Origin: an uncultured delta proteobacterium | GTDB taxonomy: Bacteria > Desulfobacterota > Binatia > UBA9968 | Direction of reading: 5' to 3' | Length of the DNA: 64,000 bases | NCBI GenBank assembly: GCA_963771465.1 | Contig: CAVYTU010000014.1 | Coordinates: 928,001-992,000, forward strand | Shown: positions 2,830 to 36,331 of the stretch, in pieces | Layout of the letters: each line of letters begins with the position of its first letter | Position numbering within the stretch: the first letter of the stretch is position 1 | The notes under the pieces: model-generated | The model's database searches: none | Told to the model about the DNA's origin: nothing | What the model saw: only the letters and a program-made list of their open reading frames with translations | Translations under genes and position numbers: made by a program

Positions 2830-2964
2830 TCCGCTATTCTCGCTCTTAAATGAGTGCCATTTATGATCAACCCATCCTTCATAATCCAAAAGTGCTGCTA
2901 AACCACAATACCGCAACAAGCAAATCGAACGAGCCAGCTTCTATGGAGCCTTCAGGGGTCAAAT

Positions 2965-3300
2965 TGAGCTGCCCCGGGTTTCACGGACAGTTAATTAGGC
3001 GACACTCCATCGGGCTTGTAACTGCATTGGTGTTTGATAATTCAATGACTGATGCAGTCGTTTGCGATTGTAAAACATTCCAATGTATCTGAAAGATTTC
3101 TGCTCGTGCCTCGTCGCGAGTGTGATTGCCCCGGGTGGTGAATGATCTCGTTTTTCAGCGAACTGAAGAAGCTCTCCGCCGCATTGTCATAACAGTTTCC
3201 CTTGCCGCTCATAATACGCAGATTGCCGTACTGTTCGAGTGGATAACGTGCGCCGCGACCGCCGCCAGCAATTACCGCGGGATCGGGACTGGCTCGGCGG
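2965..3300 (-). mobile_element. IS3-family remnant: orfB C-terminus plus terminal inverted repeat
   Basis: Translates to MSGKGNCYDNAAESFFSSLKNE and RLHQSLNYQTP (DDE integrase C-terminal motifs). IR TGAGCTGCCCCGGGTTTCACGGACAG starts at 2965. Confidence 0.85.
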
Positions 3301-3468
3301 GCGCGGCTTCGGCATAGTATAGGCATAGGATTCTGAACAAGCGGGCAGCGCATTCAGAAGCAACCGAATCTTACATTCACCTGATGGACGGTGGTTTCAT
3401 CATATGAACGGCCAATTCAAGATGGTTGTGAATATGGACACCATGACGTGATCGATTAGGGGGAATCC

Positions 3469-3984
3469 ATGGCCAAAAAAACTAGTGCTGGACTTTTGTT
3501 GTATCGTCGTTGTCCGGAGCTTGAGGTTTTTCTTGTCCATCCCGGTGGACCGTTTTGGACAAGGAAGGATGCTGGGGCATGGTCAATACCGAAGGGCGAA
3601 GTCGAGGATGGCGAGGACCCGCTTCAGGCCGCCAAGCGTGAGTTTACGGAAGAGACCGGTTTTACTATTTCTGGAGAGTTTCGTTCTCTCGATTCGCTAA
3701 AACAACCTAGCGGAAAAATAATCTATGCATGGGCGATTGAAGCTGACTACGACCCTGGGCAGATTCGCAGCAATTTATTCTCGCTGGAGTGGCCGCCCAA
3801 GTCCGGTAAAATGCAACAGTACCCAGAGGTCGATCGCGCGGCATGGTTCAACATCTCTGAAGCCAGGAATAAGATTTTGGCTGGTCAGGTCGGGTTCATC
3901 GAGCAACTCATCGCGGTTCTCGGGATAAATAGGTCGGAGTCGCAACTCTCGAAAACTGCAAGTTCTCAGGGGTCGCTCTTTTAG
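3469..3984 (+). CDS. NUDIX hydrolase, copy 1
   Basis: Nudix box PKGEVEDGEDPLQAAKREFTEETG; HPGGPFW motif. Confidence 0.9.
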   Translation: MAKKTSAGLLLYRRCPELEVFLVHPGGPFWTRKDAGAWSIPKGEVEDGEDPLQAAKREFTEETGFTISGEFRSLDSLKQPSGKIIYAWAIEADYDPGQIRSNLFSLEWPPKSGKMQQYPEVDRAAWFNISEARNKILAGQVGFIEQLIAVLGINRSESQLSKTASSQGSLF

Positions 3985-4083
3985 ATCGTCCTAAGGCCAA
4001 ACGGGGCAAAGGTGGAAACCACTGGGCTCAGACTTCTATGACCCGACTACCTCGTCATTCGTGGTAAGACCGACGAAATCCAA

Positions 4084-4210
4084 AATGTCAAAATCAAGAC
4101 CTGACCCCGACTGCGTGTTTGCAAAAATGTCAGAAGTAAAACTTTGACGTTTGATTTCTATCGATGATGTCAAGATTCAAGATTTGGCCCCGATCTTTTT
4201 GACCCGATCG
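4084..4210. repeat. Cluster of REP-like GTCA-N11/12-TGAC(CCC) motifs
   Basis: aatgtcaaaatcaagacctgacccc (4084-4108), aatgtcagaagtaaaactttgac, gatgtcaagattcaagatttggcccc and ttgacccgatc. Confidence 0.8.
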
Positions 4211-4346
4211 TTTCTGCTCTGCCTTGACACAAAGTTAAACGCGATGTTAGAGCTCAGCGGCAAAGGACGCTTCCATGCCGAACTATTTTCATTCTAACTT
4301 TGGCGGGTGAGCTCGAACGCCGTGGGAGAGTAAGATTAATCACTCT

Positions 4347-5357
4347 ATGCTGCCCGTACTCCTAGCCGTGATTGTAAGTGTGAGCGTGTCGCTCCACGGC
4401 CTTGACCGGGCATGGTCGCAGCCAACTGATGCGGCGGCGATTATCGAAGGCGCAAAGAAGGAAGGCGAGCTGGTCATCTACGGCACCACCGACCTGAGAC
4501 AGGCGACCATCCTCAACGATAAATTCCGTCAGAAATATCCCTTTATCGACGTCAAACTGAACCGTCTGACGACCGACAGTCTCTATCCCAGGTTGATCGC
4601 TGAGACGCGTTCCGGGAAATTCCTGAGCGACGTGTTACAGAACAACACTCTGGTCATGTATTTCCTCAAGCGAGGGAAGTTTTTGGCTCACTACCTTTCA
4701 ACCGAGGATCGCTATTATCCAAACGATTTCAAAGACCAAGGATATTGGATCACCAGCGGCACGAACATTCACGTCGTCGGCTACAACACCCGAGCCGTTA
4801 GCCGCGACAAGCTGCCAAAGCGATGGGAAGATCTGCTAACCCCTGCGTGGAAGGGGAAAATGCTGCTCAGCCCCCGAGAACAATGGTTCGCCTGGATATT
4901 ACAGATCATGGGTAAAGAAAATGGCCTCAATTATATGCGCGCACTGGCGAAACAAAGCCTGACGATACGTCGCGAGTCCAACGCGATGAGAGCTCAACTC
5001 ATTACCGCCGGTGAGGCCGACTTAGAGATTGACTCGACTTTAAGTGTCATAACTCCGTTGATGAAAAACAGCGCGCCGGTCAGCTGGACGACGCTGGGTC
5101 CTACCCTCGTGGTGCCGGTCGCGCACGCGCTGGCCGTGCGCGCGCCGCATCCCAACGCGGCAAAGCTCTTCATCGACTTCGTCCTCTCTAGAGAGGGACA
5201 ACGGATCGTTTTGGCGTCTGAACGAAACTCCGCCCGCGCCGATCTCGCCCAGGAGCAGGGCGCGTTGAAAGATGCCAAGTTGATCCCGCTCGATCCCTCT
5301 CAAGGCGATAACTTGGAATTCTACGCGCGCCAGGCTCACGAGATCTTTGGCAAGTAA
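4347..5357 (+). CDS. ABC transporter extracellular solute-binding protein (Fe3+/thiamine-like)
   Basis: Signal peptide; AKKEGELVIY, GYNT, LPKRWEDLLTPAWKGK, APHPNAAKLFIDF. Confidence 0.88.
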   Translation: MLPVLLAVIVSVSVSLHGLDRAWSQPTDAAAIIEGAKKEGELVIYGTTDLRQATILNDKFRQKYPFIDVKLNRLTTDSLYPRLIAETRSGKFLSDVLQNNTLVMYFLKRGKFLAHYLSTEDRYYPNDFKDQGYWITSGTNIHVVGYNTRAVSRDKLPKRWEDLLTPAWKGKMLLSPREQWFAWILQIMGKENGLNYMRALAKQSLTIRRESNAMRAQLITAGEADLEIDSTLSVITPLMKNSAPVSWTTLGPTLVVPVAHALAVRAPHPNAAKLFIDFVLSREGQRIVLASERNSARADLAQEQGALKDAKLIPLDPSQGDNLEFYARQAHEIFGK

Positions 5358-5586
5358 GACGAAAGCCATCCGAGCCAAAGCCAATTTTCAAAGCCTAAAA
5401 TCGCCGCCGCATCCGCGCTCCGTTTCCAGCGGCGCGTCGCGGGGCACGATTCGATGTCGTGAGATCAGCGGCAGCAGCCGATCTAAGTGCTTCAATACTG
5501 ATCGTGCCGGCGTAGCCAATCCATCGAGAATTTGAAGCCGTCCTCATCGCGACCTTTGGGCACAAGGTCGAGGAATGGATAGGCAC

Positions 5587-5964
5587 TTATTTCTTGATGG
5601 CGAAGTCCGCCTGGTCGAAAATCTGTCGGATCTCAATCACGTCGCCTTCGTCGGCGGGGCACCGCTGCGCCCATTTCACCAGCTCTTCTTTTGAGTCGGC
5701 TTCCACCAGCCAATAACCGCCCAGCACTTCTTTCGACTCGATGTACGGCCCATCGGTCACCGTCGGTTTCCCTTTGCCGAACGAAACACGCGCGCCGGTG
5801 TTGAGTGGATGCAGGCCGTTCAGCGAGAGGATTTTGACGGCCTTGCCCAACTCCCCATTATAGCGGGCCATCTCTTCAAGTTTCTTTGGGTCGGGCACAA
5901 AGCCGGGGTCCATCTTCTTATTGCCTCTGTAAACATCGGGGATCATCAGCATCATGAATTGCAT
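5587..5964 (-). CDS. YciI family (DGPF-domain) protein
   Basis: GLHP...VTDGPYIESKEVLGGYWLVEADSKEE motif. Confidence 0.88.
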   Translation of the reverse strand: MQFMMLMIPDVYRGNKKMDPGFVPDPKKLEEMARYNGELGKAVKILSLNGLHPLNTGARVSFGKGKPTVTDGPYIESKEVLGGYWLVEADSKEELVKWAQRCPADEGDVIEIRQIFDQADFAIKK

Positions 5965-6188
5965 AGGTCATCTCCTTGGTTTTTAATTTTGGTCCTGCAC
6001 CTTAGTCGTTTGGCAGCCCCCAAATTCGACACACATCCAAACATATTTTTTTGATCTCCTGGAGCCGCCGTTCCAAGTACCGCCGCTCAGGAGCGTAGCC
6101 AAGACAAAGGGTGTCGACCGCGAAGAAGATCTGCATGGTACATTGGTTTCATCATATGAACGGCTAGCGTAATCGATTAGGGGAATCT

Positions 6189-6653
6189 ATGGCCAAAAAA
6201 ACTAGTGCTGGACTTTTGTTGTATCGTCGTTGTCCGGAGCTTGAGGTTTTTCTTGTCCATCCCGGTGGACCGTTTTGGACAAGGAAGGATGCTGGGGCAT
6301 GGTCAATACCGAAGGGCGAAATCGAGGATGGCGAGGACCCGCTTCAGGCCGCCAAGCGTGAGTTTACGGAAGAGACCGGTTTTACTATTTCTGGAGAGTT
6401 TCGTTCTCTCGATTCGCTAAAACAACCTAGCGGAAAAATAATCTATGCATGGGCGATTGAAGCTGACTACGACCCTGGGCAGATTCGCAGCAATTTATTC
6501 TCGCTGGAGTGGCCGCCCAAGTCCGGTAAAATGCAACAGTACCCAGAGGTCGATCGCGCCGCATGGTTCAACATCTCTGAAGCCAGGAATAAGATTTTGG
6601 CTGGTCAGGTGCGGTTCATTGAGCAACTCATCGCGGTTCTCGGGATGAAATAG
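6189..6653 (+). CDS. NUDIX hydrolase, copy 2 (near-identical to 3469-3984)
   Basis: Same sequence apart from a few substitutions and a 1-nt indel near the 3' end (ataaatagg vs atgaaatagg). Confidence 0.9.
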   Translation: MAKKTSAGLLLYRRCPELEVFLVHPGGPFWTRKDAGAWSIPKGEIEDGEDPLQAAKREFTEETGFTISGEFRSLDSLKQPSGKIIYAWAIEADYDPGQIRSNLFSLEWPPKSGKMQQYPEVDRAAWFNISEARNKILAGQVRFIEQLIAVLGMK

Positions 6654-6866
6654 GTCGGAGTCGCAACCCGCCAAAACTGCAAGTTTTCAAACGTTCCTCT
6701 TTTAGATCGTCCTAAGCCAACCGTGACAAAGTTGGAAACCACTCGGCCCAGACTTAATGATCCGACTACGTCGACAATTAGATTTGCGGCGGCAGGATGT
6801 TGACGGTGCATTGCCGGCTTGATACTCATCGGTGGATTTAAACTTTAGAAATTTGGAGGCTATTTC

Positions 6867-7910
6867 ATGCTTGACGGAAAACTTCGGATCGCTCCCATGT
6901 GTTATCACGTGCTGCATATGTTCCCTGTCATATCGGCGCACGAGATGAATTATTTTTACGATGAAGGTCTAAAGACCGCGGACGGCTCGCTCGCTTATGA
7001 GATTATTCGCGATCCCATGGTGCCGTTTGGCCTGGAGAAGTTGGGAATCTCGCAAGCCATGAAAGAGAAGTCGGTCGATATCGCTCTTGACGTCCAGTCT
7101 CGGACTATTTTCTTTCAACGGTCGCGCGGCGCGGACATCTACATCATCGCCGGCTGGCGCAACCAGCATACGTCGACCTGGGTTGGTCCGCCCCACATTA
7201 AGTCGCTCCAGGATCTAAAGGGAAAACGAGTCGGTATCAGCGATTTCAACAGCATCCGCCACTGGGGGATCCAGGTCCAGCTGCGCAAGGCCGGCCTCGA
7301 TATCGAGAAAGATGTCGAATGGGTGCGCTGCGGCGTATCGACGCGCGTCCTGGTAGAGGCGCTGCGCCAAGGCAGAGTTGAATGCGCTCCGGTATCCAGC
7401 GTGATAGCGGAAAACCTGAAGAAAGAAGGCTGCAATATCTTGGTTGTGCCGCAGGAGACATACCCGAACGGACGGCCGGAGCGTGTTATCGCCGCCACCG
7501 GACGCATACTTGAAGAGCGCCCCGATCTGGTCAAGAACTTTCTCAAAGGGCTCATTCGATCTTACTGGTTCGTGCGCGATATGCCGAAGAATTTCGAGTA
7601 CATTCACCAGCTCGATAAAAGGCTGCGGATACAAACTGCCGATCCGGAAGAGCGTATCCATGATCCCAATCGCTACACGACGGACGATTTGGAGTCGATG
7701 CCTTTCCCACTCGACGGCCTGGCCACGGGATTCGAAGATATGCTGCGCGAAGAGAAACTTATCGACGGCCTCGAGTATGACGTCCCGCCAATCAAGGACG
7801 TTTGCGCCCAGGACTTGGCGGAAGACGCCTACAAGGAATTGAGAGGCCGCAAGGAATTGGACGCTGAGTATCAGCGCGTGCAGGCCGTGGCGAAGCGTTG
7901 GGGCTACTGA
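6867..7910 (+). CDS. NMT1/SsuA-like substrate-binding protein
   Basis: IKSLQDLKGKRVGIS, LRKAGLDIEKDVEWV, ERPDLVKNFLKGL. No obvious signal peptide. Confidence 0.8.
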   Translation: MLDGKLRIAPMCYHVLHMFPVISAHEMNYFYDEGLKTADGSLAYEIIRDPMVPFGLEKLGISQAMKEKSVDIALDVQSRTIFFQRSRGADIYIIAGWRNQHTSTWVGPPHIKSLQDLKGKRVGISDFNSIRHWGIQVQLRKAGLDIEKDVEWVRCGVSTRVLVEALRQGRVECAPVSSVIAENLKKEGCNILVVPQETYPNGRPERVIAATGRILEERPDLVKNFLKGLIRSYWFVRDMPKNFEYIHQLDKRLRIQTADPEERIHDPNRYTTDDLESMPFPLDGLATGFEDMLREEKLIDGLEYDVPPIKDVCAQDLAEDAYKELRGRKELDAEYQRVQAVAKRWGY

Positions 7911-7935
7911 AACGGTTCGAAATGGCTGGAAATCA

Positions 7936-7974
7936 GGGGTCAGACTTTTACTTCTAGAGTCAAAGTCTGACCCC
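7936..7974. repeat. Perfect 13-bp REP-like hairpin between convergent genes, possible bidirectional terminator
   Basis: GGGGTCAGACTTT-tacttctagagtc-AAAGTCTGACCCC. Confidence 0.85.
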
Positions 7975-7998
7975 GAGTACTGTTCCGATTCGGTATTT

Positions 7999-9117
7999 TC
8001 ACTTGTCCGCCCTGGGAAAACCGAAAGCCTTCACGATCTCCTCCTCATACTTTCCCATTTGGGAATAATGTTCCCAGCCCAACAAGGAAAGCTTCCTGCC
8101 CCTCGTCGCCTTTTCATGAAACGAGCCCGCAGTTAAATGCGAGGCCGCGCGGTCCACTTTGTCGAGAATGGCTTGAGCTTCCGGGCCTGACTGGAACTCC
8201 AACCATAAAAGTCCCGCGTAGGGGTTTCGCGCCATGGCCGAGACACCCTCCGCCTCCGTCAACCGCACCGGGATGGGCTCCAGAATTTTTATGGCGAGGA
8301 CATCTTGAACGTCTTTTTCCTTGAATCTCAGGTAGCCTTTGTAATTCAAGCCAAGATTCATAAGGATTTCTCCCCCCGTCATAAGAGGCAGGGTGCGGGT
8401 GTCCCCCCGAGTCCAGATGGGCTCTTGGGCCGCCAGTCGTTTGGCATAAGCCACCACTTTCTCCAACCCCCAAGCCGGCACGAGCGCGGCAACAGCTCTC
8501 GGCCGGACGTCCGTGGCAAATTTTTTTCCCTTGAATTCGGGCTTCAGCATGTCCTCGTAGGTGTCGGGCGTCTTATTCTCCGGCACTAATTTTTTGTTGT
8601 ATGCGAACCCTGCGATATTGGTCTGCAGAGCGAGGATGTGGCGGTTGACCGGATCGACCATTTCCGGCGGTATCCGCAGCACTCCGTGCTTGGTCATGCC
8701 GAGCAGGTCGAACTTTTTCTGGTGCGGAAGATACTCGGCATAATAGTCAAAGGCCACATAATTGACATCCCAGGCCGTGGTCTTGCCGAGCTTCAACTCT
8801 TGGACCATCCGGGTGTAATTATCCGTGCCGCCAATCTCGGTCGCCTTTACATCAATGAACGGGTATTTTTTCCGGAAAGCGTCCGCCGCGGCCCGGAGGG
8901 GCTCCGCATCCTGGGAGCTGAAAACTACGAGCTTACCTTCCTTCTTCGCCTTTGCCACGATTGCGTCGTGGTTAGTCTCAAAGATATAGCCTTTCGTCTC
9001 CGCCTCAGTTTTTGCCTTTGACAGCATCGCACTGCTCTGCGCGGCTGCAGTCGTGGCAAAAGCCCACGCGCCTAGGAAAAAAAAGACTACGGCTGTGCTA
9101 AGAATTTCAGTTTTCGT
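7999..9117 (-). CDS. ABC extracellular solute-binding protein (KGY..AKKEG paralog family)
   Basis: ORF 7999-9027 extends in frame through a signal peptide to an ACG codon at 9117, just after GGAGGT. Confidence 0.85.
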   Translation of the reverse strand, partial: TKTEILSTAVVFFFLGAWAFATTAAAQSSAMLSKAKTEAETKGYIFETNHDAIVAKAKKEGKLVVFSSQDAEPLRAAADAFRKKYPFIDVKATEIGGTDNYTRMVQELKLGKTTAWDVNYVAFDYYAEYLPHQKKFDLLGMTKHGVLRIPPEMVDPVNRHILALQTNIAGFAYNKKLVPENKTPDTYEDMLKPEFKGKKFATDVRPRAVAALVPAWGLEKVVAYAKRLAAQEPIWTRGDTRTLPLMTGGEILMNLGLNYKGYLRFKEKDVQDVLAIKILEPIPVRLTEAEGVSAMARNPYAGLLWLEFQSGPEAQAILDKVDRAASHLTAGSFHEKATRGRKLSLLGWEHYSQMGKYEEEIVKAFGFPRADK

Positions 9118-9370
9118 GGTTCACCTCCAATCTTTTCTTTTGCTGGGCTTCCCTGGTATCCAATATTCCCTTCAGTTCGCACGTTTCCTTTTTGACATTG
9201 GCTAATCTCTCCTCGGGAAAAAATCCGGACTCGCGGAGCAATTCCAACCTGTTTATCCCTTATCATAATATTTCATCCTTTATATAGTTCTAATCCACTT
9301 TCGCTCGCGCCGGCGGTGCAAGCTTGGATTGCTGTTTTCTTGATTCAACATCGGCTATTTCATCGACGTC

Positions 9371-9470
9371 GAGCCAGGAATAAGATTCGGGCTGGTCAGG
9401 TCGGGTTCATTGAGCAACTCATTGCGGTTCTAGGGATAAATAGGTCGGAGTCGCAACCCTCGAAAACCAC
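9371..9470 (+). pseudogene. Third, partial copy of the NUDIX 3' end
   Basis: gccaggaataagatt..ctggtcaggtcgggttcattgagcaactc..gataaataggtcggagtcgcaac matches about 3862-3957. Confidence 0.85.
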
Positions 9471-9544
9471 GGCGGGCGGTGCGGGCTAACCGCTAACGTT
9501 TTTTAACTCCTGAACGGACCACTCTGAAAAAGCTTGATGATTAT

Positions 9545-9757
9545 CTAACGCGCTTTCTCCAACTCCGCCAAACGAGTCTTCGCCTGATTCGCGTACGGCG
9601 AGTCGGGATATTTTTCTACGATCTGCCGATAAAGTTTCGTAGCGTGCGGCTTGTTGAACTGCTTCTCTTCGAGCTGCGCCGTATCGTATAAATCCTTCGC
9701 TTTATCACCGCAGCCCGTGAGCAGTAGAAGCAGGCAGGCGGCAAGAAATCTTCGCAT
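9545..9757 (-). CDS. Small TPR-like lipoprotein
   Basis: Lipobox LLLTGC; YRQIVEKYPDSPYANQAKTRL. Confidence 0.8.
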   Translation of the reverse strand: MRRFLAACLLLLLTGCGDKAKDLYDTAQLEEKQFNKPHATKLYRQIVEKYPDSPYANQAKTRLAELEKAR

Positions 9758-9853
9758 GAAAATTCTCCTTGTCGAATAGCCGTGAGACGTGAGGCCTGAG
9801 GCGATTCGGTTGATCGTGCAAAGCTCAGACTCACGCTTAACACCGATCCGGAC

Positions 9854-10955
9854 TTACACTCTGAACTGAGCAATCAGGTCATCTTCCGGATCCGCGCCGA
9901 GACCTGGGCCCTGCGGAACTTCAACTCCGCCGTTGATCACCGGCACGGTCTTGGAGAACGGAGTCGCGCCAAAGTCGGCAAACATCCGCTCGAGCGGAGA
10001 ATCTTTCTCTTTCGCCGCGAGGCAATGCAACACCGCTAGAAAAGCCGGTCCCAAATAAAAGGCGTTCGGCACGCAGAGGGCGCCCGCTTGCTCGACCTCG
10101 GCCGCTACTCTTGCCAAGGCGGTGATGCCCAGCTTGACCATGGCGGGCTGAACGTAATCAGCCTTGCCGATAGTGACCATGCGGCGGAACTCGCGCAGAC
10201 TGGTTGAGTTCTCGCCAATCCCCATGGGTACGCCGGTGACCGTGCGCAGCTTGGCAAGTGCTTCGAAGTCCTCCGGAGGATAGATCGGCTCCTCGACCCA
10301 GAACGGCTTGTACGGCGCCATCGCCGAGACCGCCGCCTCGGCTTCGACCGGCGTCCAAGCGCAGTTTGTATCCACCATGAGCGGAATGTCCGGCCCCGTC
10401 ACCTCGCGCGCGGCAGCGACCGCCTCAGGGAGTGCGCTCATGCAGCTTAATCAGGCGATAACCGCGTTCGAGAGCGCGAGCGGTGTTGCGCTTGATGTAT
10501 TCTGAGTTGCCGGAATATTGCAGCAACGAAGCATAGCATTGGACGTGCGTTCGCTTGGCGCCGCCAAGGAGCGTCGACACCGGAACACCCGCAAGCTTCC
10601 CCCGAATGTCCCACAGCGCAATGTCGAGTCCCGCGAGAGCGTGGGCCAGCGGACCGGAGCGGCTCATTGAGAGCAGCATCCGTTCTATGCGTGGGACGAG
10701 TTGCTCATCCGAGGCGCTCTGTCCAACGGCGAGACGCCTGATCCAGTTGTCGAACGCTGCGACGACCATGGGACGGGCTGTGCCGAATGACTCACCCCAA
10801 CCCACCAGGCCGCCACTGGTCGTCACGCGTACATAAAGGCTTTCAACATGCGTGCGTGGTATACCTTGAGCCATCGGCGCCGGAGCCCAGATGTCCAACG
10901 GAATGCGCAACGTGATCGTTTCGATCGCGGAGATTGTCTCGTCCATGGCCGTCAT
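9854..10955 (-). pseudogene. Mandelate racemase/muconate lactonizing enzyme family, single frameshift near 10430
   Basis: N-half has GWGES, LDIALWDIRGK and KLH; C-half has LMVDTN, WVEEP, GEN and PGLG. Confidence 0.85.
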
Positions 10956-11169
10956 TCAAAGCAAGAATTCGTGAAAATGTCGAGCCGCATTCCTCCGACG
11001 AAAGTGCGGGATATGGGCTTGCCCTAGTGCTCTTAAAGAATTAACGCGACCGATCTCTCGTTACTCGTCAGGCTTTCTCGCAGCCTCGGCGGGGAATCCC
11101 GCATAGTTCGTCGAAACCGAAACAATCGGAACGCACCCCGACGAAGACCACGTGGAGAAACCGACGAAA

Positions 11170-11243
11170 CCCGAAACATCAAGATTCAAGACTTGACCCC
11201 GAATCTCTGAATCTGACCCCGAATCTCGTTGACCCCGAATCTC
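11170..11243. repeat. REP-like end followed by three TGACCCCGAATCTC reiterations
   Basis: ccgaaacatcaagattcaagacttgacccc; TGACCCC at 11194, 11214 and 11230. Confidence 0.85.
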
Positions 11244-11708
11244 CGTTCCGGGTCGGTCTCGCCGTTAGCACCATTGATGCACTCCTGCATCTCGGCGCTG
11301 GGCCCAGGGACAATCACCCGTTCTTGTTCACACCCGCCACGCCGGGAGAACGGCTCATTGACCCGAAATGTCTGTAGCACCGGCAGCGGTCCACAATCCC
11401 AGCCGAGTTTGGCGGTGCGTTGTGTGCGGTAATGTCAACTTTGGACCGGAGCGAATTCGGCGCAGCGAGTGCCGCGGGACAGTTGGCTGCAGCTGAGGAG
11501 GAATAAACCTATGGCATTCGCTGATTCACGGCTGGATATTTCGGGACTGGGTCAGCTAGCGGCTGCAATTGGGGCAATCCCTGCTTCAGAGGGGAAGAGA
11601 TCGATCTTACGCCTGCAGACAGTGGCCCGACCGCGAGTTACTAGCCGCAATGAGACTCAGACAGTTCCGACGTGCTGTGATATTCGTCCGGCCCGAACTC
11701 TACTCACC

Positions 11709-11897
11709 CTAAATTGGCAATTTATCGACGACCACGGCGGCCTCGTCTATCGCCTCATGTGCCGCATCGCCCGCGACAGGCACGATGGAAGTCACTGCGC
11801 CAACCACGCGCATCGGCACGGTGACTAATTTGGTGAGCACACAACCGGATAGCAGGATCGTCCCGATCAGCAAACATAACGCTCTGATGAATCGCAT
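11709..11897 (-). CDS. Small lipoprotein (DUF6726-like)
   Basis: LLSGC lipobox; TKLVTVPMRVVGAV..IVPVAG; GGAGG RBS. Confidence 0.7.
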   Translation of the reverse strand: MRFIRALCLLIGTILLSGCVLTKLVTVPMRVVGAVTSIVPVAGDAAHEAIDEAAVVVDKLPI

Positions 11898-12640
11898 AAT
11901 AGCCTCCTGAGTAAAACGCATATAGCTCAGTCAACGCTAGCACTGCAAACAAATCCACGACGACACGAGGATTGCAGATTCTCGTAGCACGTGTAAGTAG
12001 ACGAAATTACACTGCGCTGCAATATACAAAACGAATCCATCAGTATACGGAACCAGACGCTGAGGATTATTTTTTCCGCCTCCTCCGTATGCCAGCCGCT
12101 TTATTTTGACCCCGTTGATGCTTTGCTCGGATCGGAATCACTCGGCACTGAGCTGTGAGTGAAGCCAATTCTCTGAGAGCCCTCACCAGCTAACCATTCC
12201 AACCCCGGGTCATAGGTGTCATATCTCCTTGAATTCTTCATAAAGTATTACGCGCGTGACCCATGTGTCAGATTTAACAGCGTGAAGGCCGACAATGAGA
12301 AACCCGTCGTGGACAGGCGACTGGACCGACCCGACACGAGAATTGATGATGCTCTGCCCAGGGAAATCAGAATCACGGATGTGCACTTGATTTCGAGTGT
12401 CGTGAAGACTAGCAAGACGGACAACCACCAGCAAAAACCAACAGAAAATCCACGCCTCTCTCCCCTCTTCTCCGTCTGTGAGTGCTCCTTGTTGCTGAAG
12501 GAACGAGCACAAAACTAGCACAGCAGGGATCGCAGAGTCGCCCCTCGCCTTGCACGCGGTCTTTGCCGATACTAATATCGGCTGGGCGGTATACTCCAGT
12601 TAGGCGCACCGACGAACGTGAGTCGGAGATAACGGAAATG

Positions 12641-13436
12641 AATAAATCTGTCCCCATTTTCTGCTCACGGTAGATGACCGTGAATCTCCGCGCCATGACC
12701 TACAACATCCACAGTGGCTTTGGACGGCACGGCCACGACCTTCACACCATCCTTCGGGTAATCGAGGCCGAGCGGGTGGACCTCGTGGCGCTGCAGGAAG
12801 TCGATTTTGCGTTGCGTCGAAGCGGGTACGTCAACCAGGCCCAATGGCTCGCCGATCGTCTCAGTATGCACGCGATCATCGGCGGTACGCGTCGTCAAGG
12901 CCGTTACGGCAACGCGCTGCTCACGCGCTGGGCGACCACCTTCGTGATGAACCACAGTCTCACCGTGCGGCCGCATCCCGGACGGGCCTGCCTGGAGGCG
13001 CACCTTACCACCCCGAAGGGCACGCTTCGCTGTTACGTGACGCACCTGGGGCTGGTGCCTCAGGAGCGCATGGCCCAGGTGAAGCGGTTGACCCGGGAGA
13101 TCATCGTGGCGGATGGAGGCCATGAGCCGGCTCTCTTGATGGGTGATTTCAACACGGTGTCGCGAAGCCGCGTCTCACGCCTTCTACGGAGGCGCTTCAC
13201 CGACGCGTTCAAAGTCGCGGGGAACGGTCGGGCTGCGACCTTCCACGCACGGCTGCGAGGGATGCGGTTCGACTATATCTATGCCGCCGGTCTGACGCCG
13301 ATCGCCGCTCACGTGCTCGTGACACGCTGGTCCGTCAGGGCATCCGACCACCTTCCGCTCGTCGCGGTGTTGCGGGCCGATTTCGGCGGAAAGCACACCC
13401 CTGATCCTAACTTGAATTAATGGAGACAGATCTATT
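12641..13436. repeat. 18-bp imperfect inverted repeats bracketing the EEP gene
   Basis: aataaatctgtccccatt (12641-12658) and aatggagacagatctatt (13419-13436); 16/18 match in inverted orientation. Confidence 0.75.
12674..13420 (+). CDS. Endonuclease/exonuclease/phosphatase (EEP) family protein
   Basis: MTYNIH, ALQEVD, GNALL, THL, MGDFN, FDYI and SDHLP motifs. Confidence 0.92.
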   Translation: MTVNLRAMTYNIHSGFGRHGHDLHTILRVIEAERVDLVALQEVDFALRRSGYVNQAQWLADRLSMHAIIGGTRRQGRYGNALLTRWATTFVMNHSLTVRPHPGRACLEAHLTTPKGTLRCYVTHLGLVPQERMAQVKRLTREIIVADGGHEPALLMGDFNTVSRSRVSRLLRRRFTDAFKVAGNGRAATFHARLRGMRFDYIYAAGLTPIAAHVLVTRWSVRASDHLPLVAVLRADFGGKHTPDPNLN

Positions 13437-13543
13437 TTTCACAGACGCATCACAGTTTCGTTTTCACAACGATCCAAAGACTGTACATGGGGTTTTGAAA
13501 AAACTTCCGTAAGGGACAAAGATTGCGGTCGCACAAAGATTTT

Positions 13544-13630
13544 GGGGTCAAGTCTTAATCTTGATGTTTCTGGTTTTGTCCTCAAAAAAGATTTGGGGTC
13601 AAGTTGAACTAGCCCAGATTTGACGGACAC
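13544..13630. repeat. Two REP-like GGGGTCAAG motifs followed by an IS3-type terminal IR
   Basis: GGGGTCAAGTCTTAATCTTGATG at 13544; GGGGTCA at 13595 followed by AGT and then TGAACTAGCCCAGATTTGACGGACACC at 13605. Confidence 0.8.
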
Positions 13631-14015
13631 CGAGAAAGGGGTCGCCACCTAACGCTTGCGCTTTCGATGCCGGCGAATGAAATCGAGAACGATATCGTTA
13701 AAAATCTTTGGATGCTCCCAATAGATCGAATGACCGCATTCGGCGAGGGTAACGAGTTCACTCCGGTGGATGCACTTCGCAACTATCTGGTCATGATCGC
13801 AACAGAAGAGTTGAGATCTATGCTAGCTAGCCCCGATTTGACGGACACCGAGAAAGGGGTCGCCACCTAACGCTTGCGCTTTCGATGCCGGCGAATGAAA
13901 TCGAGAACGATATCGTTAAAGAGCTTTGGATGCTCCCAATAAATCGAATGGCCGCATTCGGCGACGGTAACGAGTTCGCTCCGGCGGATGCACTTCGCCA
14001 CCATCCGCATGATCG
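13610..14015. repeat. Tandem duplication of about 185 bp (IS3-like IR plus hydrolase 3' end)
   Basis: About 13610-13798 vs 13828-14015, with scattered substitutions. Confidence 0.9.
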
Positions 14016-14729
14016 ACGGCGGCGTTGAAGAATCCGCATCGCCGGTAACCAGCAGCGTCGGGACTTTCATCTTGTTCAGGACTTGCGGCGTAATAAAGTT
14101 GTTGTGCGCTTGTTGGACGCCCTGGTGCTTGGTGGCGTCGTCGGCCAGCTTGTCCCAGGCTTTAAGGCCTCTCGGGTTGGCCGCAATATACGAGCAACTG
14201 AATTCCCGATACCAGCGCGGCATCTCGTTCCACTGTTTAACCCGGACGACTCGGCCATCTTCAAAATATTACCCTTGCGGATACCGGCATAGTTGCTGGT
14301 GATCGCCAAGCTTAAAGTCCTTTTGGGATAGGAAAGCGCAAAGTCCGCAGCAATGCTGCCGCCGGCGGCGCTGCTGACGATATGAGCCTTTTCGATGGAC
14401 AACGCGTCGAGCAGGCCGTTGAGGTCATCGGCGGCCGAGTGCTTGTCGCCTTTGCGCAATTTGTCGGACTTGTAGTAGCCGCGCCGGGCATAACTGATCA
14501 CCCGATAGCCGGCCTTGGCAAAGACCGGTTGCTGGTAAGCCCAAACCTTGGGATCACCTGTCGCGGCCGGATGCAGAAAGACCACAGCCTCGCCCTCGCC
14601 GCCGGTGTCGGCGTAGAAAATCTTCCTGCCCGGCAGCTTGGCCAGGGCACGTTTGGCCGGCACCTGCTTGGGCAGGGGTATGGGATTCATTGGATTGGCG
14701 GCGTTATTGCGGACAAAGCGTTCGCTCAT
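13867..14729 (-). pseudogene. Alpha/beta hydrolase, frameshift near 14240
   Basis: VVFLHP, GYRVISYARRGY, nucleophile elbow VSSAAGG, PTLLVTGDAD, ECGHSIYWEHP. Confidence 0.85.
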
Positions 14730-14952
14730 CGGATACTCCTTAGTTTCATTGCGGGATTCATGTTCTGTGGTAGGGGTGCGGGCGGCGTCACGTACCGTTG
14801 CAGTTTCGTTGAATCGCCCTATTTGACTGGCCGGTAGCCGCTGCACTTTTTGGGCTAGAAATTGCACAGATCGCGATTTGAGGTCAAGTCTTCAAGATAC
14901 GACCCCGCTGGTAACTCGCGAACCGCTACCATCTTTGTTTGTGTAGCTCCGG

Positions 14953-15264
14953 CTAGCGGCTATCGCGGCGCCGGTTGAGCTTTGCGTCCGCACGTTGACG
15001 GCTAATCTCTTCACTTCCCAACGGATCGTAATCGCAGGGCCCGTAGAGGAATATTATATCGCCATCGGTCGAATCTTTGAGCCGGGGCTGCGACGAAAAC
15101 AATGTGTCCTCGCGAATCGCTGGAAACCATAAGCGGCAGTAGTTGGTGTCCGCGACCGGAACCCTGCGAACAACCTCGTCCGCGTCGACGGCGGGTGCAC
15201 TAAAGCACCCGGCAATGCTTGCAGCCATGACGAAGCCGCCTATTTTCATCTTTTTTGTAGCCAT
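14953..15264 (-). CDS. Secreted hypothetical protein
   Basis: Signal-like N-terminus; NYCRLWFPAIREDTL..GDIIFLYGPCDYDPLG. Confidence 0.65.
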   Translation of the reverse strand: MATKKMKIGGFVMAASIAGCFSAPAVDADEVVRRVPVADTNYCRLWFPAIREDTLFSSQPRLKDSTDGDIIFLYGPCDYDPLGSEEISRQRADAKLNRRRDSR

Positions 15265-15668
15265 GTTTTTCCGAGAACGCGGCGTAATCTTCGGGCTTGT
15301 CGAAAAGTCGGCTGCGCCCATGACGGAGATGGATGTATGCGTTGCTCTATGCCTAGACAAGCACGCATTGCTCCCGGTGAAATAATTTATCACGCTCTTT
15401 ACCGCGCCTCTGCAATCACACATTCCCGCTTCGCTCCTTCATCCGTTTGCGGCGTCGTCTCACGTCGGATGATCCCCGCGCTGACCCTGCGGATTATAAT
15501 CGACTATTGCTATTATATCGAGACAGGACCTGTTATCCCGACCGGGCTGCGGGTCGGACCTGGGCAACTTCTCGCACGCGTGAAGGAGCTTGGCGATATG
15601 AGATCTTATAGGAGCATACATTTGAAACCCTAGAAACTCGATGCGACAACAAAACAAAGCGTTTTCAT

Positions 15669-16934
15669 TCAACGACGCGCTTGGAAGTATTTGAGTACGT
15701 ATTCTTTATTTTCCGGATACCATAGGTTGCCGAGATGTCCGCCGCGTGGATAAAGCATCACTTGGTCGCCCAGGGCTTCTTTGAGCGCTTCAATGGACGA
15801 TTTCTCGGCGAAGAAATCATCGGCGTTGTGAATGATGTGCACTTTAGGATTATCACGCAACCGATCGTAGATGCTCGCCAATGACCCATGTTGAACGAAC
15901 CTTTGCGGTTCCGCCTGCAAATCTCCTTTTTGCCTTCGCCATAGGGGGAGAGCGATTTTTCGGTCATAGTCATTGAACGTAAAGCTCTTAGCTTCCTCCA
16001 GCCGTTTTCTCTTGTCATTTTTCGCGGCGGTAAGCACTCTCTGGTCGTTAATGACCTGGGTGACGTAGATCAGCTCGGCGAGCTGGCTCTGTAGGTTTTC
16101 GGCGAATAGGAATTGCATGTCTTCTCTCTTGAAAGCAGCGAATTTTTTCGCTAATTGCTCGAAGACCTCGGGATCGTCCCGCTTTGCCTTGGCAAACGAA
16201 TCGATGATGGCAAGCGCATTCGATACGATTTGCAGAGACTTCTCCTTGCCTAATTTTCTGTCCAACGCTTTCCATTCATCGATTTTACTGACGGCGTAAG
16301 CGAGATCGACGGGTGGGTTTACGAGCAGATATTTGGCGATGCCGATCTTGCCTTCGTCGGCGTCGATGACGCTCAAATGCGCGCCTTCAAGGGCGCCTAA
16401 ACTGACCCCCATGAAATTGATCGCCGTGGTTTTGACGTTGTGTCGATCGCGCAAGAGCTTAAGGGTTTTTTGCATCACTTCGTAGAGATCGCGAGCGTCG
16501 TCCGGCGCGTAACCAGGTGCGCCGCTGCGACTCGCCGATAACGCGAAGTTCCAGCTCATCGGCGAGGGTAAAACCACCACGTGGGAACCCTCTCGATGGA
16601 ACAGGTTCGCCAAATACGGCGCGATCCCGAAGTAGGGACTCGAGCCAAGGCCGGGAAGAATGAAAAGCAGCGGCGCCGCGCGGTTTTGGCGATAAAGCGC
16701 CAGACTCACGTCGCCGCGTCCTTGGAGAGAAGGCAGATTATTTCTGCCGCGAAGTCCCGGCACACGGACGATGGTCGATTGGGCGGCCGACGTCGCGCCG
16801 TCGTCGCTCAAGATCGCGAGAGTGGCGGTTGCCAAGTAGGGATCGGGATAAGGGTACCTATAGTCTGCCGGTTCGATTGCTCGGGCCGACGTCGCCCACA
16901 GGGCGACAAGAATGAGAGCGAGATAAAAGCGCAT
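15669..16934 (-). CDS. Secreted alpha/beta-fold hydrolase
   Basis: Signal peptide; GVSLG nucleophile motif, HNADDF, GGHLGN. Confidence 0.82.
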   Translation of the reverse strand: MRFYLALILVALWATSARAIEPADYRYPYPDPYLATATLAILSDDGATSAAQSTIVRVPGLRGRNNLPSLQGRGDVSLALYRQNRAAPLLFILPGLGSSPYFGIAPYLANLFHREGSHVVVLPSPMSWNFALSASRSGAPGYAPDDARDLYEVMQKTLKLLRDRHNVKTTAINFMGVSLGALEGAHLSVIDADEGKIGIAKYLLVNPPVDLAYAVSKIDEWKALDRKLGKEKSLQIVSNALAIIDSFAKAKRDDPEVFEQLAKKFAAFKREDMQFLFAENLQSQLAELIYVTQVINDQRVLTAAKNDKRKRLEEAKSFTFNDYDRKIALPLWRRQKGDLQAEPQRFVQHGSLASIYDRLRDNPKVHIIHNADDFFAEKSSIEALKEALGDQVMLYPRGGHLGNLWYPENKEYVLKYFQARR

Positions 16935-17556
16935 ACTAAAACTCCTGTTGACTCGATGGATGCAGGCAATCCAGACGTTAAAGTTATTTTCATGGTATTG
17001 TCGGATCTATTCAAAAAGGAGACGGTCGGATTTCCTTCTTGCTCTGTATGCTAAAACTTTTACCTCGGCGCTGCTAGCCATTTTTTTGGGAAGTTTTCCC
17101 TGGGGTCAGGACTGGAATGCCGCCAGGGACTTGCAAATCCCAATTAGAGCTCGCATCTGATGGCAGCGGTAATGAAGCGGTGACGTTAAACCGTCGGTTC
17201 AACAAGAGCGATATGAGGTCAGCTCATCGTGACCCTCCTTTGCTCCTCTCTGGAAATCGGAGCAAGTCTAGAGTTCTATAGATTTTCACCTTCGAACAAA
17301 TCGTGACACAGACAAAATACCGGAATCAACGATTCAACTCCGGACCCGACCCCTTTCTTCTGACTCGGATTCTTATCTCCGGTCTTTTCTCGGAGCGCAA
17401 ACACGGCAACCGGTTAAACGGAATGGAAGTCGGTTTTCTGCGCGCGATGGGTTAGAGGAAAGCCTCACAACTGTCAACAAAAGACTTGAACCGATTCCTT
17501 CACACTTGCTCCGGTGGGGGATCAAGGATTGACAATTGTGCTTGCCCGGCGACGCT

Positions 17557-18813
17557 TTATTTTTCCATCGCCGCCAGCATCGCGTCTTTTTCAGCGCGTA
17601 TTCTGGGGTGATAACAGTCGACCGGCTGTGTGCCGATGAGTCCGACACAGGCGTTGCAATCCACGCACCGCGGTCCCGAGGTTCCATCGTGCAAGTGGCG
17701 ATACAGCAGCGGATCGGCGATAAACCCGCGGCCGACGGAAACCGCGTCGCACAGACTTTGTTCGATGGCGGACTGCATTGCTTCCCGGCTAAGAAACCCG
17801 CCGACGCATATGACCGGAATGGATAGGGCTTGTTTGAATTGGCGCGCGTAATGAAGGTTGAAGCCTTCACGACCTTTAAAGAGAAGATTGAACACAAGCG
17901 CCATCAACGGCCAGAACAAATTGAAGGCCATCCTGCGCCACAACGACAGATGGCGCACACCGCCCGACAGCGTATTGCGCAAACAGCGGCCGAAGGTGCC
18001 ACGCACCATTGGAAAGCCGGACTCGTACTGGCCGACGGATACCTCGACGGCATCGATGCCTTCCTGCTCCATCGCCTTGGCGATCTTAACCAGCTCGGGC
18101 GTTTTCAAACCGGGCCGCAGCGGCAGGTAATCGGAACCGTTGAGCTTAATGATCACCGGGTAGTCCTTGCCGACACGCCCGCGCATCGCGCGATATAAAT
18201 CGCGCAGGAATCGCAAGCGCTTCTCGAACGAGCCCCCGTAGTCGTCGGTGCGTTTGTTGGTGTACGGCGTGAGGAACTGATTGACCAGATAGCCGTGTCC
18301 GGCGTGAATCTGCACGCCGTCGAAGCCGGCCTCCTTGCAGCGGGCAGCGGCGTCAGCGAACTGTTGCACGATGCGTTCGATTTCCGCCACGGTCAACGCA
18401 CGCGGTCGCGTGCCGGTTGACAAGTCTTTGACGCTCGACGCGGACAATGCCTCGGGTAATCCGGCGAAGCCAGGAATAACCTGGCGTCCACTATGATTCA
18501 GCTGCGCGAAGATCTTGGTGCCGTGCACATGCATTGACTCGACCAGCTGCTTGAGCGCCGGAATTTTACTGTCGTCATCTACGCCCATTTGCAATGGCGT
18601 GGATCTGCCGTCAAGACTGGGATAGACATTCCCGGTAATGATGAGTGGCACGCCGCCTTTGGCCATCGGCAGGTAGAAGTCAATATGCTGCTGCGTGGCA
18701 AAGCCATCCGCCGTGGCGCGGGTTTCCGAGGTCGCGGTCTTAATGATCCGTCCATTAATCGAGAGCTTGCCGATGGCGAGGGGTGTAAAAAGAATGCTTT
18801 CGTTCGGTGACAT
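17557..18813 (-). CDS. NADH:flavin oxidoreductase (Old Yellow Enzyme family)
   Basis: AQLNHSG, AGFDGVQIHAGHGYLVNQFLTP, NKRTDDYGGS; C-terminal CVDCNAC. Confidence 0.92.
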   Translation of the reverse strand: MSPNESILFTPLAIGKLSINGRIIKTATSETRATADGFATQQHIDFYLPMAKGGVPLIITGNVYPSLDGRSTPLQMGVDDDSKIPALKQLVESMHVHGTKIFAQLNHSGRQVIPGFAGLPEALSASSVKDLSTGTRPRALTVAEIERIVQQFADAAARCKEAGFDGVQIHAGHGYLVNQFLTPYTNKRTDDYGGSFEKRLRFLRDLYRAMRGRVGKDYPVIIKLNGSDYLPLRPGLKTPELVKIAKAMEQEGIDAVEVSVGQYESGFPMVRGTFGRCLRNTLSGGVRHLSLWRRMAFNLFWPLMALVFNLLFKGREGFNLHYARQFKQALSIPVICVGGFLSREAMQSAIEQSLCDAVSVGRGFIADPLLYRHLHDGTSGPRCVDCNACVGLIGTQPVDCYHPRIRAEKDAMLAAMEK

Positions 18814-18904
18814 AACGGACCTCCGTAGTATCGCACGCCAGCGATTAAGCTTACATCAGCCCGGGCTGTACGCGCCATACAGGAAAAGGCGGCAGGGTCC
18901 TTCT

Positions 18905-18988
18905 GGCCTTTCTTGCTTTTTGTTTCGTTCATCCTCCACAGGCACTTTTGAATTCAACTCCAAGACTCCTTGCTCGCGATCGCCGCGT
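18905..18988. repeat. MetE-like 3'-end repeat, short copy
   Basis: ctttcttgctttttgtttcgttcatc..cacttttgaattcaactcc..gcgatcgccgcg. Confidence 0.85.
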
Positions 18989-19020
18989 CCTAAGTCGATC
19001 CAAAAGCAAAACTAAAGATG

Positions 19021-19420
19021 TGAGTAGCCGGGATTTGACGGACACCAAACAAGGGCTTAACAGTTCGGGTGAGGCGTTCGATAGAAAAGCAGAAGCAATT
19101 TAGCGCTGAGTTTAAACGAGTAGCCGTACGACTAGTGGAAAGTTTATCGGTGGGGTGAAAATGGAAGAGGGTGTCACAATTGCCAAGGTGCCGGATTGAA
19201 TGAAACTCAAGCCGAGATGATGCGGCATCTGATCAGGGAGCACGAGAAGCTTGGGCGCACCCTGACCGAAGAAGAGACAGTCACGTTGCTACGCAGCTTG
19301 GGATTCGAAATCAGTGAGCCGAAGTGATGAGGAACAAAGTCGGCTCTGGGGTCAGGTCTGCAATCACACATTCCCGCTTCGCTCCTTCATCCGTTCACCG
19401 TCGGATGCGCCGCGATCTCG
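19021..19420 (+). mobile_element. Composite remnant: IS3 left end and orfA stub, short ORF, REP-like motif (copy A)
   Basis: IR TGAGTAGCCGGGATTTGACGGACACC; KQKQFSAEFKRVAVRLVE; GGGGTCAGGTCTGCAATCACACATT at 19348. Duplicated at 33878-34290. Confidence 0.8.
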
Positions 19421-27762: not shown

Positions 27763-28010
27763 TGGATCAAATCTTTACCATATAAACTGGTCCTACTCGC
27801 AACTGATTGACTGCACAAATTTACTCGAGGCTGCTCCAAGATAAGGATAAGAGACCGACGAAAATCCGAAACATCAAATTACCAGACTTGACCCTGATGG
27901 TTTCACTGCCGTATACGAGAGCGAGGAAGGTGGCAAAAGTAACAAACATTCTGACGTGCGTATTAATTGAATCTTTAAAAGGCCGAGAAAATGACTGAGG
28001 AGTTTATTTT

Positions 28011-30410: not shown

Positions 30411-30434
30411 ACAACAACTGGTGTGGAGGTATTT

Positions 30435-33728: not shown

Positions 33729-33877
33729 TCTGCTGCAAGGTTTGAACGGACACTGGACCCGATCCGGTGGATTGAACCGCTTGAACAGTTCAGTATTGTT
33801 GTCTGTCTACTCTCGACTAGGCAAGCGGAAGCAGACGATGTTCCAGGGCTAAGAGCGTGTTCGCGTTTGGCAGTTCG

Positions 33878-36226: not shown

Positions 36227-36301
36227 GGGTCAAACTTTTGATGTTCGGAGAAGGATCGATTGAGGCGAAGCCGTAGATGTCAAAACTTAAGTTTCAACCC
36301 C
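36227..36301. repeat. Inverted REP-like pair
   Basis: gggtcaaacttttgatg ... gatgtcaaaacttaagtttcaacccc. Confidence 0.7.
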
Positions 36302-36331
36302 GTGCTCCGCCGTTCTCCGCCCGTGCGAGGA

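Follow-up and report, generated by a model that had tools for sequence, protein, structure and literature searches.

IS3-family remnants at the head of a RAYT-flanking, REP-like repeat: evidence for sequence-directed insertion in an uncultured bacterial family

Insertion into repetitive extragenic palindromic (REP) sequences by insertion sequences (IS) of the IS3 family is known from a few proteobacterial cases, namely IS1397, ISKpn1 and ISPsy8. As set out in PMC1525189, ISPsy8 is an IS3-family element of Pseudomonas syringae DC3000 present in five copies, each of which interrupts a REP at one and the same position and makes a 3-bp direct repeat, the REP target being used in either orientation and the site lying on the symmetry axis of a probable hairpin; the same paper names IS1397 (E. 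coli) and ISKpn1 (Klebsiella) as IS3 members whose specificity for REPs has been shown by experiment, and attributes that specificity to the transposases. The stretch of DNA analyzed here, a window of 64,000 nucleotides (C14:928001-992000) from a genome of 6.9 Mb in 19 contigs, holds the remnants of another IS3-family element, hereafter simply the IS. We put at roughly 0.85 the probability that this element targets its insertions by sequence, landing 3 bp past the heptamer GGGGTCA, the head of a REP-like repeat that flanks genes for REP-associated tyrosine transposases (RAYTs).

Compared by description, the IS resembles ISPsy8 in its family, its orfA and orfB, its fixed break point within a repeat and its use of either orientation, while it differs in host lineage and target sequence, and in that the conserved part of the target is here one-sided and the hairpin weak (ISPsy8 was also sought on plasmid pDC3000A, where none is annotated). 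With IS1397 and ISKpn1, which enter the palindromic units (PUs) of bacterial interspersed mosaic elements (BIMEs), it shares IS3-family insertion into a REP-type sequence; those targets, however, are high-copy enterobacterial PUs, whereas the repeat considered here has a different sequence and some 15-25 copies. The "type 1 association" of Tobes and Pareja (2006) for REP-targeting IS turns on an insertion position that is the same each time and on a consensus that can be defined, and both are found for this element. It also turns on every copy lying with the repeat, which rejoined flanks should restore; here all ten two-ended copies have the heptamer on one side or both, the restored repeat is clear in a single case, and in the metagenome sample most flanks carry a bare heptamer.

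Junctions in the window and across the bacterial family

Two junctions in the window carry the heptamer directly. The first (2955-2989) reads ggggtca-aat/TGAGCTGCCCCGGGTTTCACGGACA and the second (13595-13629) reads ggggtca-agt/TGAACTAGCCCAGATTTGACGGACA, where a slash, here and below, marks the boundary with the IS or the corresponding point of an empty site. Both IS3-type terminal inverted repeats (IRs), at 2965 and 13605, lie 3 nt past GGGGTCA, just as a first-pass annotation of this DNA had described. The IR pattern given there, allowing up to three mismatches, has these two matches in the window and none in 100 shuffles. The heptamer itself is present 20 times in the window; shuffles average 6.5, and none of the 100 reaches 20. 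A third junction from the same annotation (19010-19044), caaaactaaag-atg/TGAGTAGCCGGGATTTGACGGACA, likewise reads as given there; it is recovered by BLAST and not by the IR pattern, its IR copy carrying a 1-nt deletion. The relic at 2965 matches the IR pattern exactly and is 81% identical (blastn) to positions 1-266 of the near-full IS copy at C3:16763-18014, whose numbering is also used in Table 1.

For the second junction, an intact repeat copy stands close at hand for comparison. This copy, at 13544, reads aagattttGGGGTCAAGT-CTTAATC where the junction reads aagatttGGGGTCAAGT/IS, and the same bases (aagattt) precede both the intact copy and the target remnant at 13595. On its other side the relic is joined, at AAAGGGGTC, to the sequence that natively follows the 3' end of an alpha/beta hydrolase gene, and sister genome G052 has this hydrolase flank with AAAGGGGTCGCCACC and without the left IR (IRL). 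The IRL relic and the last ~150 bp of the hydrolase gene together belong to a tandem 200-bp unit (13588-13787 and 13806-14005) whose two copies are 91% identical at a spacing of 218 bp.

The flanks of the IS were also collected more widely, as the first-pass annotation had proposed. A DNA search of 90 genomes of the bacterial family found the IS in 44 of them, a tally that includes three unpublished genomes; tips were placed by a fuzzy IR pattern, with three loci from unpublished genomes and duplicate loci left out. The resulting 91 ends, nine of them from the present genome, were reduced to 85 by merging similar flanks, two of these merges probably being false. In 25 of the 85, GGTCA ends 3 nt ahead of the IS tip; not one of the 85 has it at offsets 0-2 or 4-11. 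The number of mismatches to GGGGTCA, counted over positions -10 to -4, is distributed bimodally: 43 ends have 0-2 (16, 18 and 9 ends with zero, one and two, respectively) and 32 have 5-7 (6, 18 and 8 ends with five, six and seven). At most two mismatches are found at 44 of the 91 ends (24 IRL, 13 right IR or IRR, and 7 untyped), and across these 44 the spacer takes 20 different triplets.

An independent replicate was obtained by scanning metagenome contigs with the exact left-end pattern, which gave at least 121 loci, all IRL ends and each taken with 120 nt of flank. Among the matches listed, to which every metagenome figure in this text refers, GGTCA stands at offset 3 in 27 of 109 distinct flanks as against four in total at the other offsets from 0 to 14, and 51 of the 109 lie within two mismatches of the heptamer. 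The 3-nt spacing is far beyond chance. In both samples the heptamer is found on close to half of the ends, which is what one would expect if nearly every insertion occurs beside an asymmetric site with the IS facing either way.

The pooled weight matrix reads GGGGTCA followed by G (0.68), G (0.51) and then C or T (0.79), while the opposite flank is weakly A-rich. The strongly conserved part of the target is one-sided, consisting of the heptamer and a GGY spacer. This G-G-C/T preference agrees with the head of the repeat; the bases that follow GGGGTCA genome-wide are near background. Across the present genome, the family genomes and the metagenome contigs, then, the flanks are not random and GGGGTCA-NNN is enriched at the junction. 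The first-pass annotation's proposal that an IS3 lineage specifically targets this motif finds support in the fixed offset and in the pairs of filled and empty sites described next.

On contig C3 the filled site is ..ttcaagacc/IS/gcctgacccc.. (that is, ..gatcaagattcaagacc/IS), directly upstream of a Y1 transposase gene. The paralogue of this gene on C17, 99.6% identical, is accompanied by the uninterrupted sequence ..gatcaagattcaagacctgaccc.. (..ttcaagacctgaccc..) and no IS. A second pair comes from sister genome G051, in which a right-end relic follows ..ggcggagaacGGGGTCGaat/, that is, GGGGTCGaat/IRR. Here 192 of 200 nt of flank align at 92.7% identity with positions 36310-36500 of the window (minus strand) up to the heptamer, and at this position the window has an intact repeat. 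In both pairs the motif that is split on the filled side is the continuous GGGTCA-GGT-CTTGAA on the empty one. These comparisons settle the order of events: the motif pre-existed and the IS split it. Empty-site support comes from C3 and G051, and the full repeat can be rebuilt clearly for C3 alone. A BLAST comparison between this genome and the flanks of the 82 ends from other genomes yielded an orthologous empty site that could be used for G051 only; the flanks in G077, G020 and G071 lose homology to this genome 34-50 nt before the junction.

Ten copies retain both ends, and none of the ten is without the heptamer (two mismatches at most): eight have it on a single side, and two (L020 and L023) on both, in inverted orientation. 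The 3-bp flanks of L012 and L018 are identical, and those of the C3 copy, L014, L015, L016 and L020 agree at two positions of three, so that seven of the ten copies match at two or more positions, compared with ~16% for random triplets. Such flanks fit a 3-bp target duplication that has been blurred by age or by recombination between copies, though not a clean one.

Under sequence-directed targeting, integration would place one IS tip 3 bp after 5'-GGGGTCA-3', those 3 bp, preferably GGY, would be duplicated, and the heptamer could face either IS end. This would be ordinary IS3 integration with sequence-specific target capture, the staggered cut falling on the 3 bp that follow GGGGTCA. Insertion probably takes the usual IS3 copy-out-paste-in route, and, by analogy with IS1397 and ISKpn1, target specificity may lie in the transposase, either in OrfAB or in the DNA-binding part of OrfA. 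In this bacterial family the consensus GGGTCA-GGT-CTT is the head of a short repeat, dispersed between genes and set in inverted copies around RAYT genes, and for this reason the IS would accumulate inside REP-like repeats.

The insertion sequence

IS3-family elements possess a DDE (rve) transposase whose two overlapping frames, orfA (the source of a helix-turn-helix, HTH) and orfB, are translated together through -1 frameshifting on a site of the A AAA AAG type. They are ~1.2-1.5 kb long, have imperfect IRs ending 5'-TG..CA-3' and produce 3-4 bp target duplications. The element under study is an IS3-family IS with orfA and orfB joined by a predicted -1 frameshift. This is seen best in the intact copy of sister genome G048 (L012:1501-2745, 96% identical), where orfA (101 aa) and orfB (318 aa) overlap, orfB lying in the -1 frame, and a slippery site A AAA AAG is found in the orfA frame within ctt aaa aaa ggc. 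Its orfB scores 354.2 bits against NCBIfam NF033516, "IS3 family transposase" (cutoff 160). Pieces of orfB in the C3 copy match Pfam rve, rve_2 and rve_3, and a piece of orfA reaches 17.5 bits against HTH_Tnp_1, under the 24.1-bit cutoff. The IS tips read TGAGCT..AGCTCA, and copies are 1236-1252 bp long.

In the genome that contains the window, a fuzzy search combined with BLAST recovered one near-full copy (the C3 copy, 1252 bp and broken by frameshifts), all others being fragments. These include weak pieces on C8, C15 and C17 and a 144-bp right-end piece 229 bp ahead of the start of the window. Every copy in the window and in the genome is a relic. Some copies have GGGGTCA within the IRL itself, at positions 32-38. 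The notion that this might be a site for the transposase, echoed by the target, was dropped: these positions belong to a hairpin (GGGG-loop-CCCC) that precedes the ribosome-binding site (RBS) of orfA, and the loop varies (TCA, ACA, GCA) independently of the flank.

Several forms of the IS were encountered in the other genomes. What look like internal-deletion derivatives that keep both ends, in the manner of miniature inverted-repeat transposable elements (MITEs), occur at G047:C6:559948-560262 (L020, ~315 bp), where heptamer-like words stand inverted on both flanks, and at G050:C31:238995-239230 (L051, ~236 bp). Solo left-end relics of ~36-40 bp, such as L035, L038, L039, L065-L067, L072, L073 and L075, are frequent in family genomes and far commoner than solo right ends, with 88-100% identity to the IS tip (most of them at least 92%). 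An apparently intact copy at 75% DNA identity, with GGGGTCAaat at its right end, lies on a 1512-bp contig titled Pyrinomonadaceae bacterium (L009), and its presence on a contig of another phylum suggests either horizontal spread or a binning artefact.

The repeat, its RAYT genes and other features of the window

Genome-wide GGGGTCA is not enriched: counted on both strands it occurs 324 times, as compared with a median of 650 per 7-mer; the ratio of observed to expected under an order-5 Markov model is 0.91, and avoidance of the heptamer by the genome was rejected on that figure. Fifteen of the 324 fall in one 50-kb bin overlapping the window and another 15 in the first 50 kb of C19. No extended conserved motif surrounds the 324 sites, so the heptamer alone is not a repeat family. 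The repeat proper, traced via GGTCA[AG][AG]TCT and an nhmmer profile built from eight seed copies, is GGGTCA[AG]GTCTTGAATCTTGAC.. or, in a second form, GGGTCAGGTCTTTACTCTTGC. Short tandem units, each ending in GGGGTCA, often stand ahead of it, and its visible stem is 5-6 bp (TCAAG..CTTGA). In this genome the profile finds 11 copies at E < 0.001, rising to 22 at E < 10; they cluster on C14 at 927-970 kb and on C19 at 5-35 kb.

Classical REP sequences number more than 100 extragenic copies per genome and form a stable palindromic stem-loop. The first-pass annotation had called the motif REP-like, and what holds of this description is that the motif is the head of a RAYT-flanking repeat, whose copy number and hairpin strength lie under those of classical REPs. 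With the RAYT arrangement present, the copy number far below 100 and the hairpin weak, "REP-like" is the right word.

The motif is associated with RAYT genes. The gene beside the C3 insertion scores 84.4 bits against NCBIfam NF047646, "REP-associated tyrosine transposase" (cutoff 80), and matches Pfam Y1_Tnp at 5.7e-12. This genome has two copies of it, and the one on C17 is bracketed by inverted repeat heads at C17:922885(+) and C17:923828(-). A match to the RAYT gene is found in 77 of the 90 family genomes, four unpublished ones included in this tally. Of the 24 RAYT loci examined (three from unpublished genomes were excluded), 22 have 80 nt or more of sequence ahead of the gene, and in 19 of these GGGTCAGGT is found ~45-55 nt before the RAYT start; on the downstream side, inverted ACCTGACCC is present in 11 of the 24. 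Inverted repeats bracketing a RAYT gene are the arrangement that defines RAYT/REP units according to PMC2817692 (Nunvar 2010). As in the REP/RAYT systems covered there and in PMC3333891 (Ton-Hoang 2012), a Y1 (HUH) gene is here bracketed by inverted short repeats that are also dispersed intergenically; unlike them, the repeat is of low copy number, has a short palindrome whose folding is not significant, and has the head GGGTCA rather than GTAG or CGTC. RAYTs are usually single-copy according to PMC5581495, whereas some genomes of this family have up to 22 RAYT matches: in G043, G076 and G081 there are up to 22 RAYT-like matches per genome (E <= 1e-20), many at only 40-55% identity.

IS and RAYT gene are adjacent in this genome (on C3) and in G062, G026 and G046, with IS fragments 0.2-0.8 kb from RAYT genes at G026:C288 and G046:C25. 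At G062:C2:229284-230361 (L027/L260) and at G073:C9 upstream of 23704 (L261), a complete repeat head and a RAYT gene come directly after an IRL relic. Both relics start 3 nt past the heptamer, the order being GGGTCAggt/IRL relic/GGGTCAGGTCTTGAATC..RAYT. In these two genomes a REP-RAYT unit may have landed in the IS, or a deletion may have ended at the repeat head.

The junction at 19021 is less readily interpreted. Its flank had been likened in the first-pass annotation to the opposite flank of a motif cut at the same position with a 3-bp duplication, and gcaaaactaaag-atg/ does resemble gtcaaaacagaag-att/TAGCCCC of the paralogous leaders on C19, which corresponds to the repeat's tail half with the cut at the equivalent point. 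An 8-nt gap is required for this match, and MAFFT, given the flank and the repeat copies of C19, did not introduce it; the resemblance is therefore only suggestive. On these sequence comparisons it is plausible that the flank is the tail half of a split repeat. The insertion is old, since homologous relics with the same flank are found in four other family genomes (G051, G046, G047 and G088, three of the same genus and one of another). Direct repeats D5-D7 connect 19059-19396 with 33911-34251, where a paralogous relic lies. About 330 bp beyond each of these relics is GGGGTCAGGTCT, at 19348-19359 and 34203-34214, with no recognizable repeat body (..gcaatcacacattccc..). A 75-nt leader-like repeat (..CTTGCTTTTTGTTTCGTTCAT..) is found upstream of paralogous genes at 18900-18974, 24927-25001, 27604-27678 and 30344-30418, inverted at 35313-35369, and on C19 at 5-14 kb. 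Read on the minus strand it contains an RBS and ATGAACGAAACAAAAAGCAAG, and on C19 copies of the REP-like repeat then follow.

Local duplications are numerous in the window. A NUDIX gene and its 3' flank are present twice, at 3460-3995 and 6180-6716 (2720 bp apart, 300 nt at 99% identity), and a third, partial copy of the 3' end of the gene lies 2.8 kb further on at 9372-9467.

Table 1. IS relics, target remnants and copies of the REP-like repeat, in window coordinates
Feature	Position	Strand	Basis
Target remnant: heptamer GGGGTCA (2955-2961) and spacer AAT (2962-2964), adjoining IS tip	2955..2964	+	sequence read
IS3-family relic: IRR and 266 bp of the orfB 3' end; transposase reads on minus strand	2965..3230	-	blastn, IR pattern
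REP-like repeat copy	4077..4109	-	nhmmer E = 4.7e-06
REP-like repeat copy, variant head GGGGCCA	4159..4192	-	nhmmer E = 6e-05
REP-like repeat copy after two tandem units ending GGGGTCA; heptamers at 11194, 11214, 11230	11168..11201	-	nhmmer E = 8.1e-08
REP-like repeat copy GGGGTCAAGTCTTAATCTTGATGTTTCTGG, not interrupted; the interrupted copy lies 50 bp downstream	13544..13575	+	nhmmer E = 3.5e-05
Target remnant: GGGGTCA and spacer AGT	13595..13604	+	sequence read
Solo IRL relic, 39 bp	13605..13643	+	90% identity to IS positions 1214-1252
Second IRL relic copy, without TGA tip, within 200-bp direct repeat	13825..13861	+	BLAST and repeat comparison
Flank gcaaaactaaagatg, possible tail half of a split REP-like repeat	19006..19020	+	compared with gtcaaaacagaagatt/TAGCCCC, C19 leader regions
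IRL relic, 110 bp, with degenerate orfA start; heptamer not adjacent	19021..19130	+	75% identity to IS positions 1141-1252
REP-like repeat copy	27863..27896	-	nhmmer E = 2.6e-06
Paralogue of the 19021 relic, eroded tip	33877..33982	+	77% identity to IS positions 1141-1245
Empty site, intact REP-like repeat GGGGTTGAAACTTAAGTTTTGACAT, where G051 has GGGGTCGaat/IRR	36277..36301	-	flank alignment, sequences compared

Alternative readings and implications

A number of observations weigh against targeting of a REP-like repeat by sequence. The ~15-25 detectable copies of the repeat in this genome fall below the classical REP number, and single-strand DNA folds of four copies are not better than those of shuffles (z = -0.42, -0.11, -1.92 and -0.84). 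In the metagenome sample, tandem units typical of the repeat are present in 14 of 50 heptamer-side flanks versus 1 of 53 on the other side, and much of the targeting may be to the bare heptamer and not to the REP-like element as such. With so few heptamer flanks showing the tandem-unit architecture, it is heptamer plus spacer that is demonstrably selected, the repeat being the main carrier of the heptamer in this bacterial family. The duplication is clean in only two of the ten two-ended copies; five match at just two of three positions, and L009, L013 and L023 at none. A search of 31 genomes of the genus gave no orthologous empty site for the 2965 or the 13605 junction: the former's left flank has no homologue elsewhere among them, and the flanks of the latter each match different genomes, which diverge before the junction. 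No intact copy of the IS exists in this genome, so nothing in it shows current activity. Few candidates were scored per family genome, and the sample of ends is not exhaustive.

If the IS does not read the heptamer as a target word of its own, it might instead take it for a surrogate IS end, a circle junction integrating with the 3-bp spacing that separates abutted IRR and IRL. We consider such pseudo-end targeting unlikely. GGGGTCA-nnn-TGAGCT.GCCCC does loosely mirror an abutted junction (..GGGGCAGCTCA-nnn-TGAGCTAGCCCC..) in its TCA tip and its run of G, but the resemblance amounts to GGGG and TCA with the four bases between them missing. Precedent exists in the targeting of IRs by IS30 and in the dual target specificity of IS911, both described in PMC9333248. 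According to that paper, an IS moving via a circle can be guided to a short, specific sequence that lies a small, fixed number of bases away, and in this the present IS would resemble them. Their insertion at their own IRs, however, produces an IR-IR junction, is orientation-specific and leaves no duplication, whereas here IRL (24 ends) and IRR (13 ends) both abut the heptamer. The three two-ended copies without any duplication would suit insertion at a pseudo-end, and yet two or more of the three duplicated bases are kept in the other seven, as in ordinary insertion, and comparison with the empty sites reveals nothing more than a split of the motif.

Sequence-directed insertion of the IS must also be set against the reverse order of events, in which the REP-like repeat or a whole REP-RAYT unit inserts beside IS ends. 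The arrangement in G062 and G073 could be read in this way, as a unit that landed in the IS; there is also the duplication of the RAYT unit itself, whose boundary falls at the head. The IS nevertheless parts head and 3 nt from the remainder of one and the same repeat, which is uninterrupted at the paralogous and orthologous sites; many heptamer flanks lack a repeat body; and Y1 transposases, as characterized in PMC3333891, produce no 3-bp duplication. We regard this reversal as very improbable. Least of all do the data favor the view that the window junctions agree by coincidence or as copies of one ancestral junction spread by segmental duplication, to which we give next to no credence: local duplications do abound, and the 13605 junction is duplicated at 13825, but the junctions differ in the IS end that faces the heptamer, in spacer and in upstream flank, and the same offset recurs among 85 distinct family flanks and 109 metagenome flanks. 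Scarcely more credible is the idea that GGGGTCA-NNN is part of the element, with true terminal repeats 10 bp longer. Two of the ten two-ended copies, L020 and L023, have the inverted heptamer on both sides as it predicts; in the other eight the heptamer is one-sided and at either end, 20 spacer triplets are seen among 44 ends, and the empty sites on C17 and in G000 hold the heptamer without the IS. The empty sites, together with the one-sided, variable-spacer pattern, contradict all three of these readings.

The element adds a different lineage and a different repeat to the known REP-targeting behavior of IS3 members, set beside ISPsy8, IS1397 and ISKpn1 by description, and no new principle. 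What it offers is a lineage widespread in soil metagenomes with ~200 distinct junctions, from which the target can be defined at base resolution (GGGGTCA-GGY, with insertion after the third base), and a recognition that is one-sided whichever IS end faces the site. If the targeting is real, a 7-bp specificity would be unusually strict for an IS3-family DDE transposase. The heptamer is, moreover, the conserved head of the repeat, the part that the RAYT would be expected to recognize. We would tentatively entertain, as a possibility short of even odds, a clade of elements with near-obligate, one-sided 7-bp specificity at either IS end, in which one word may be read by two unrelated transposases, and REP-RAYT units may be tracked by the IS as they pass through soil bacteria.

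For the biology of this uncultured bacterial family, targeting of the repeat head accounts for the joint clustering of GGGGTCA repeats and relics of the IS within the window, and it links the IS to a little-studied REP-like/RAYT system. The pair would make a simple, testable system for how an IS3 transposase reads its target.

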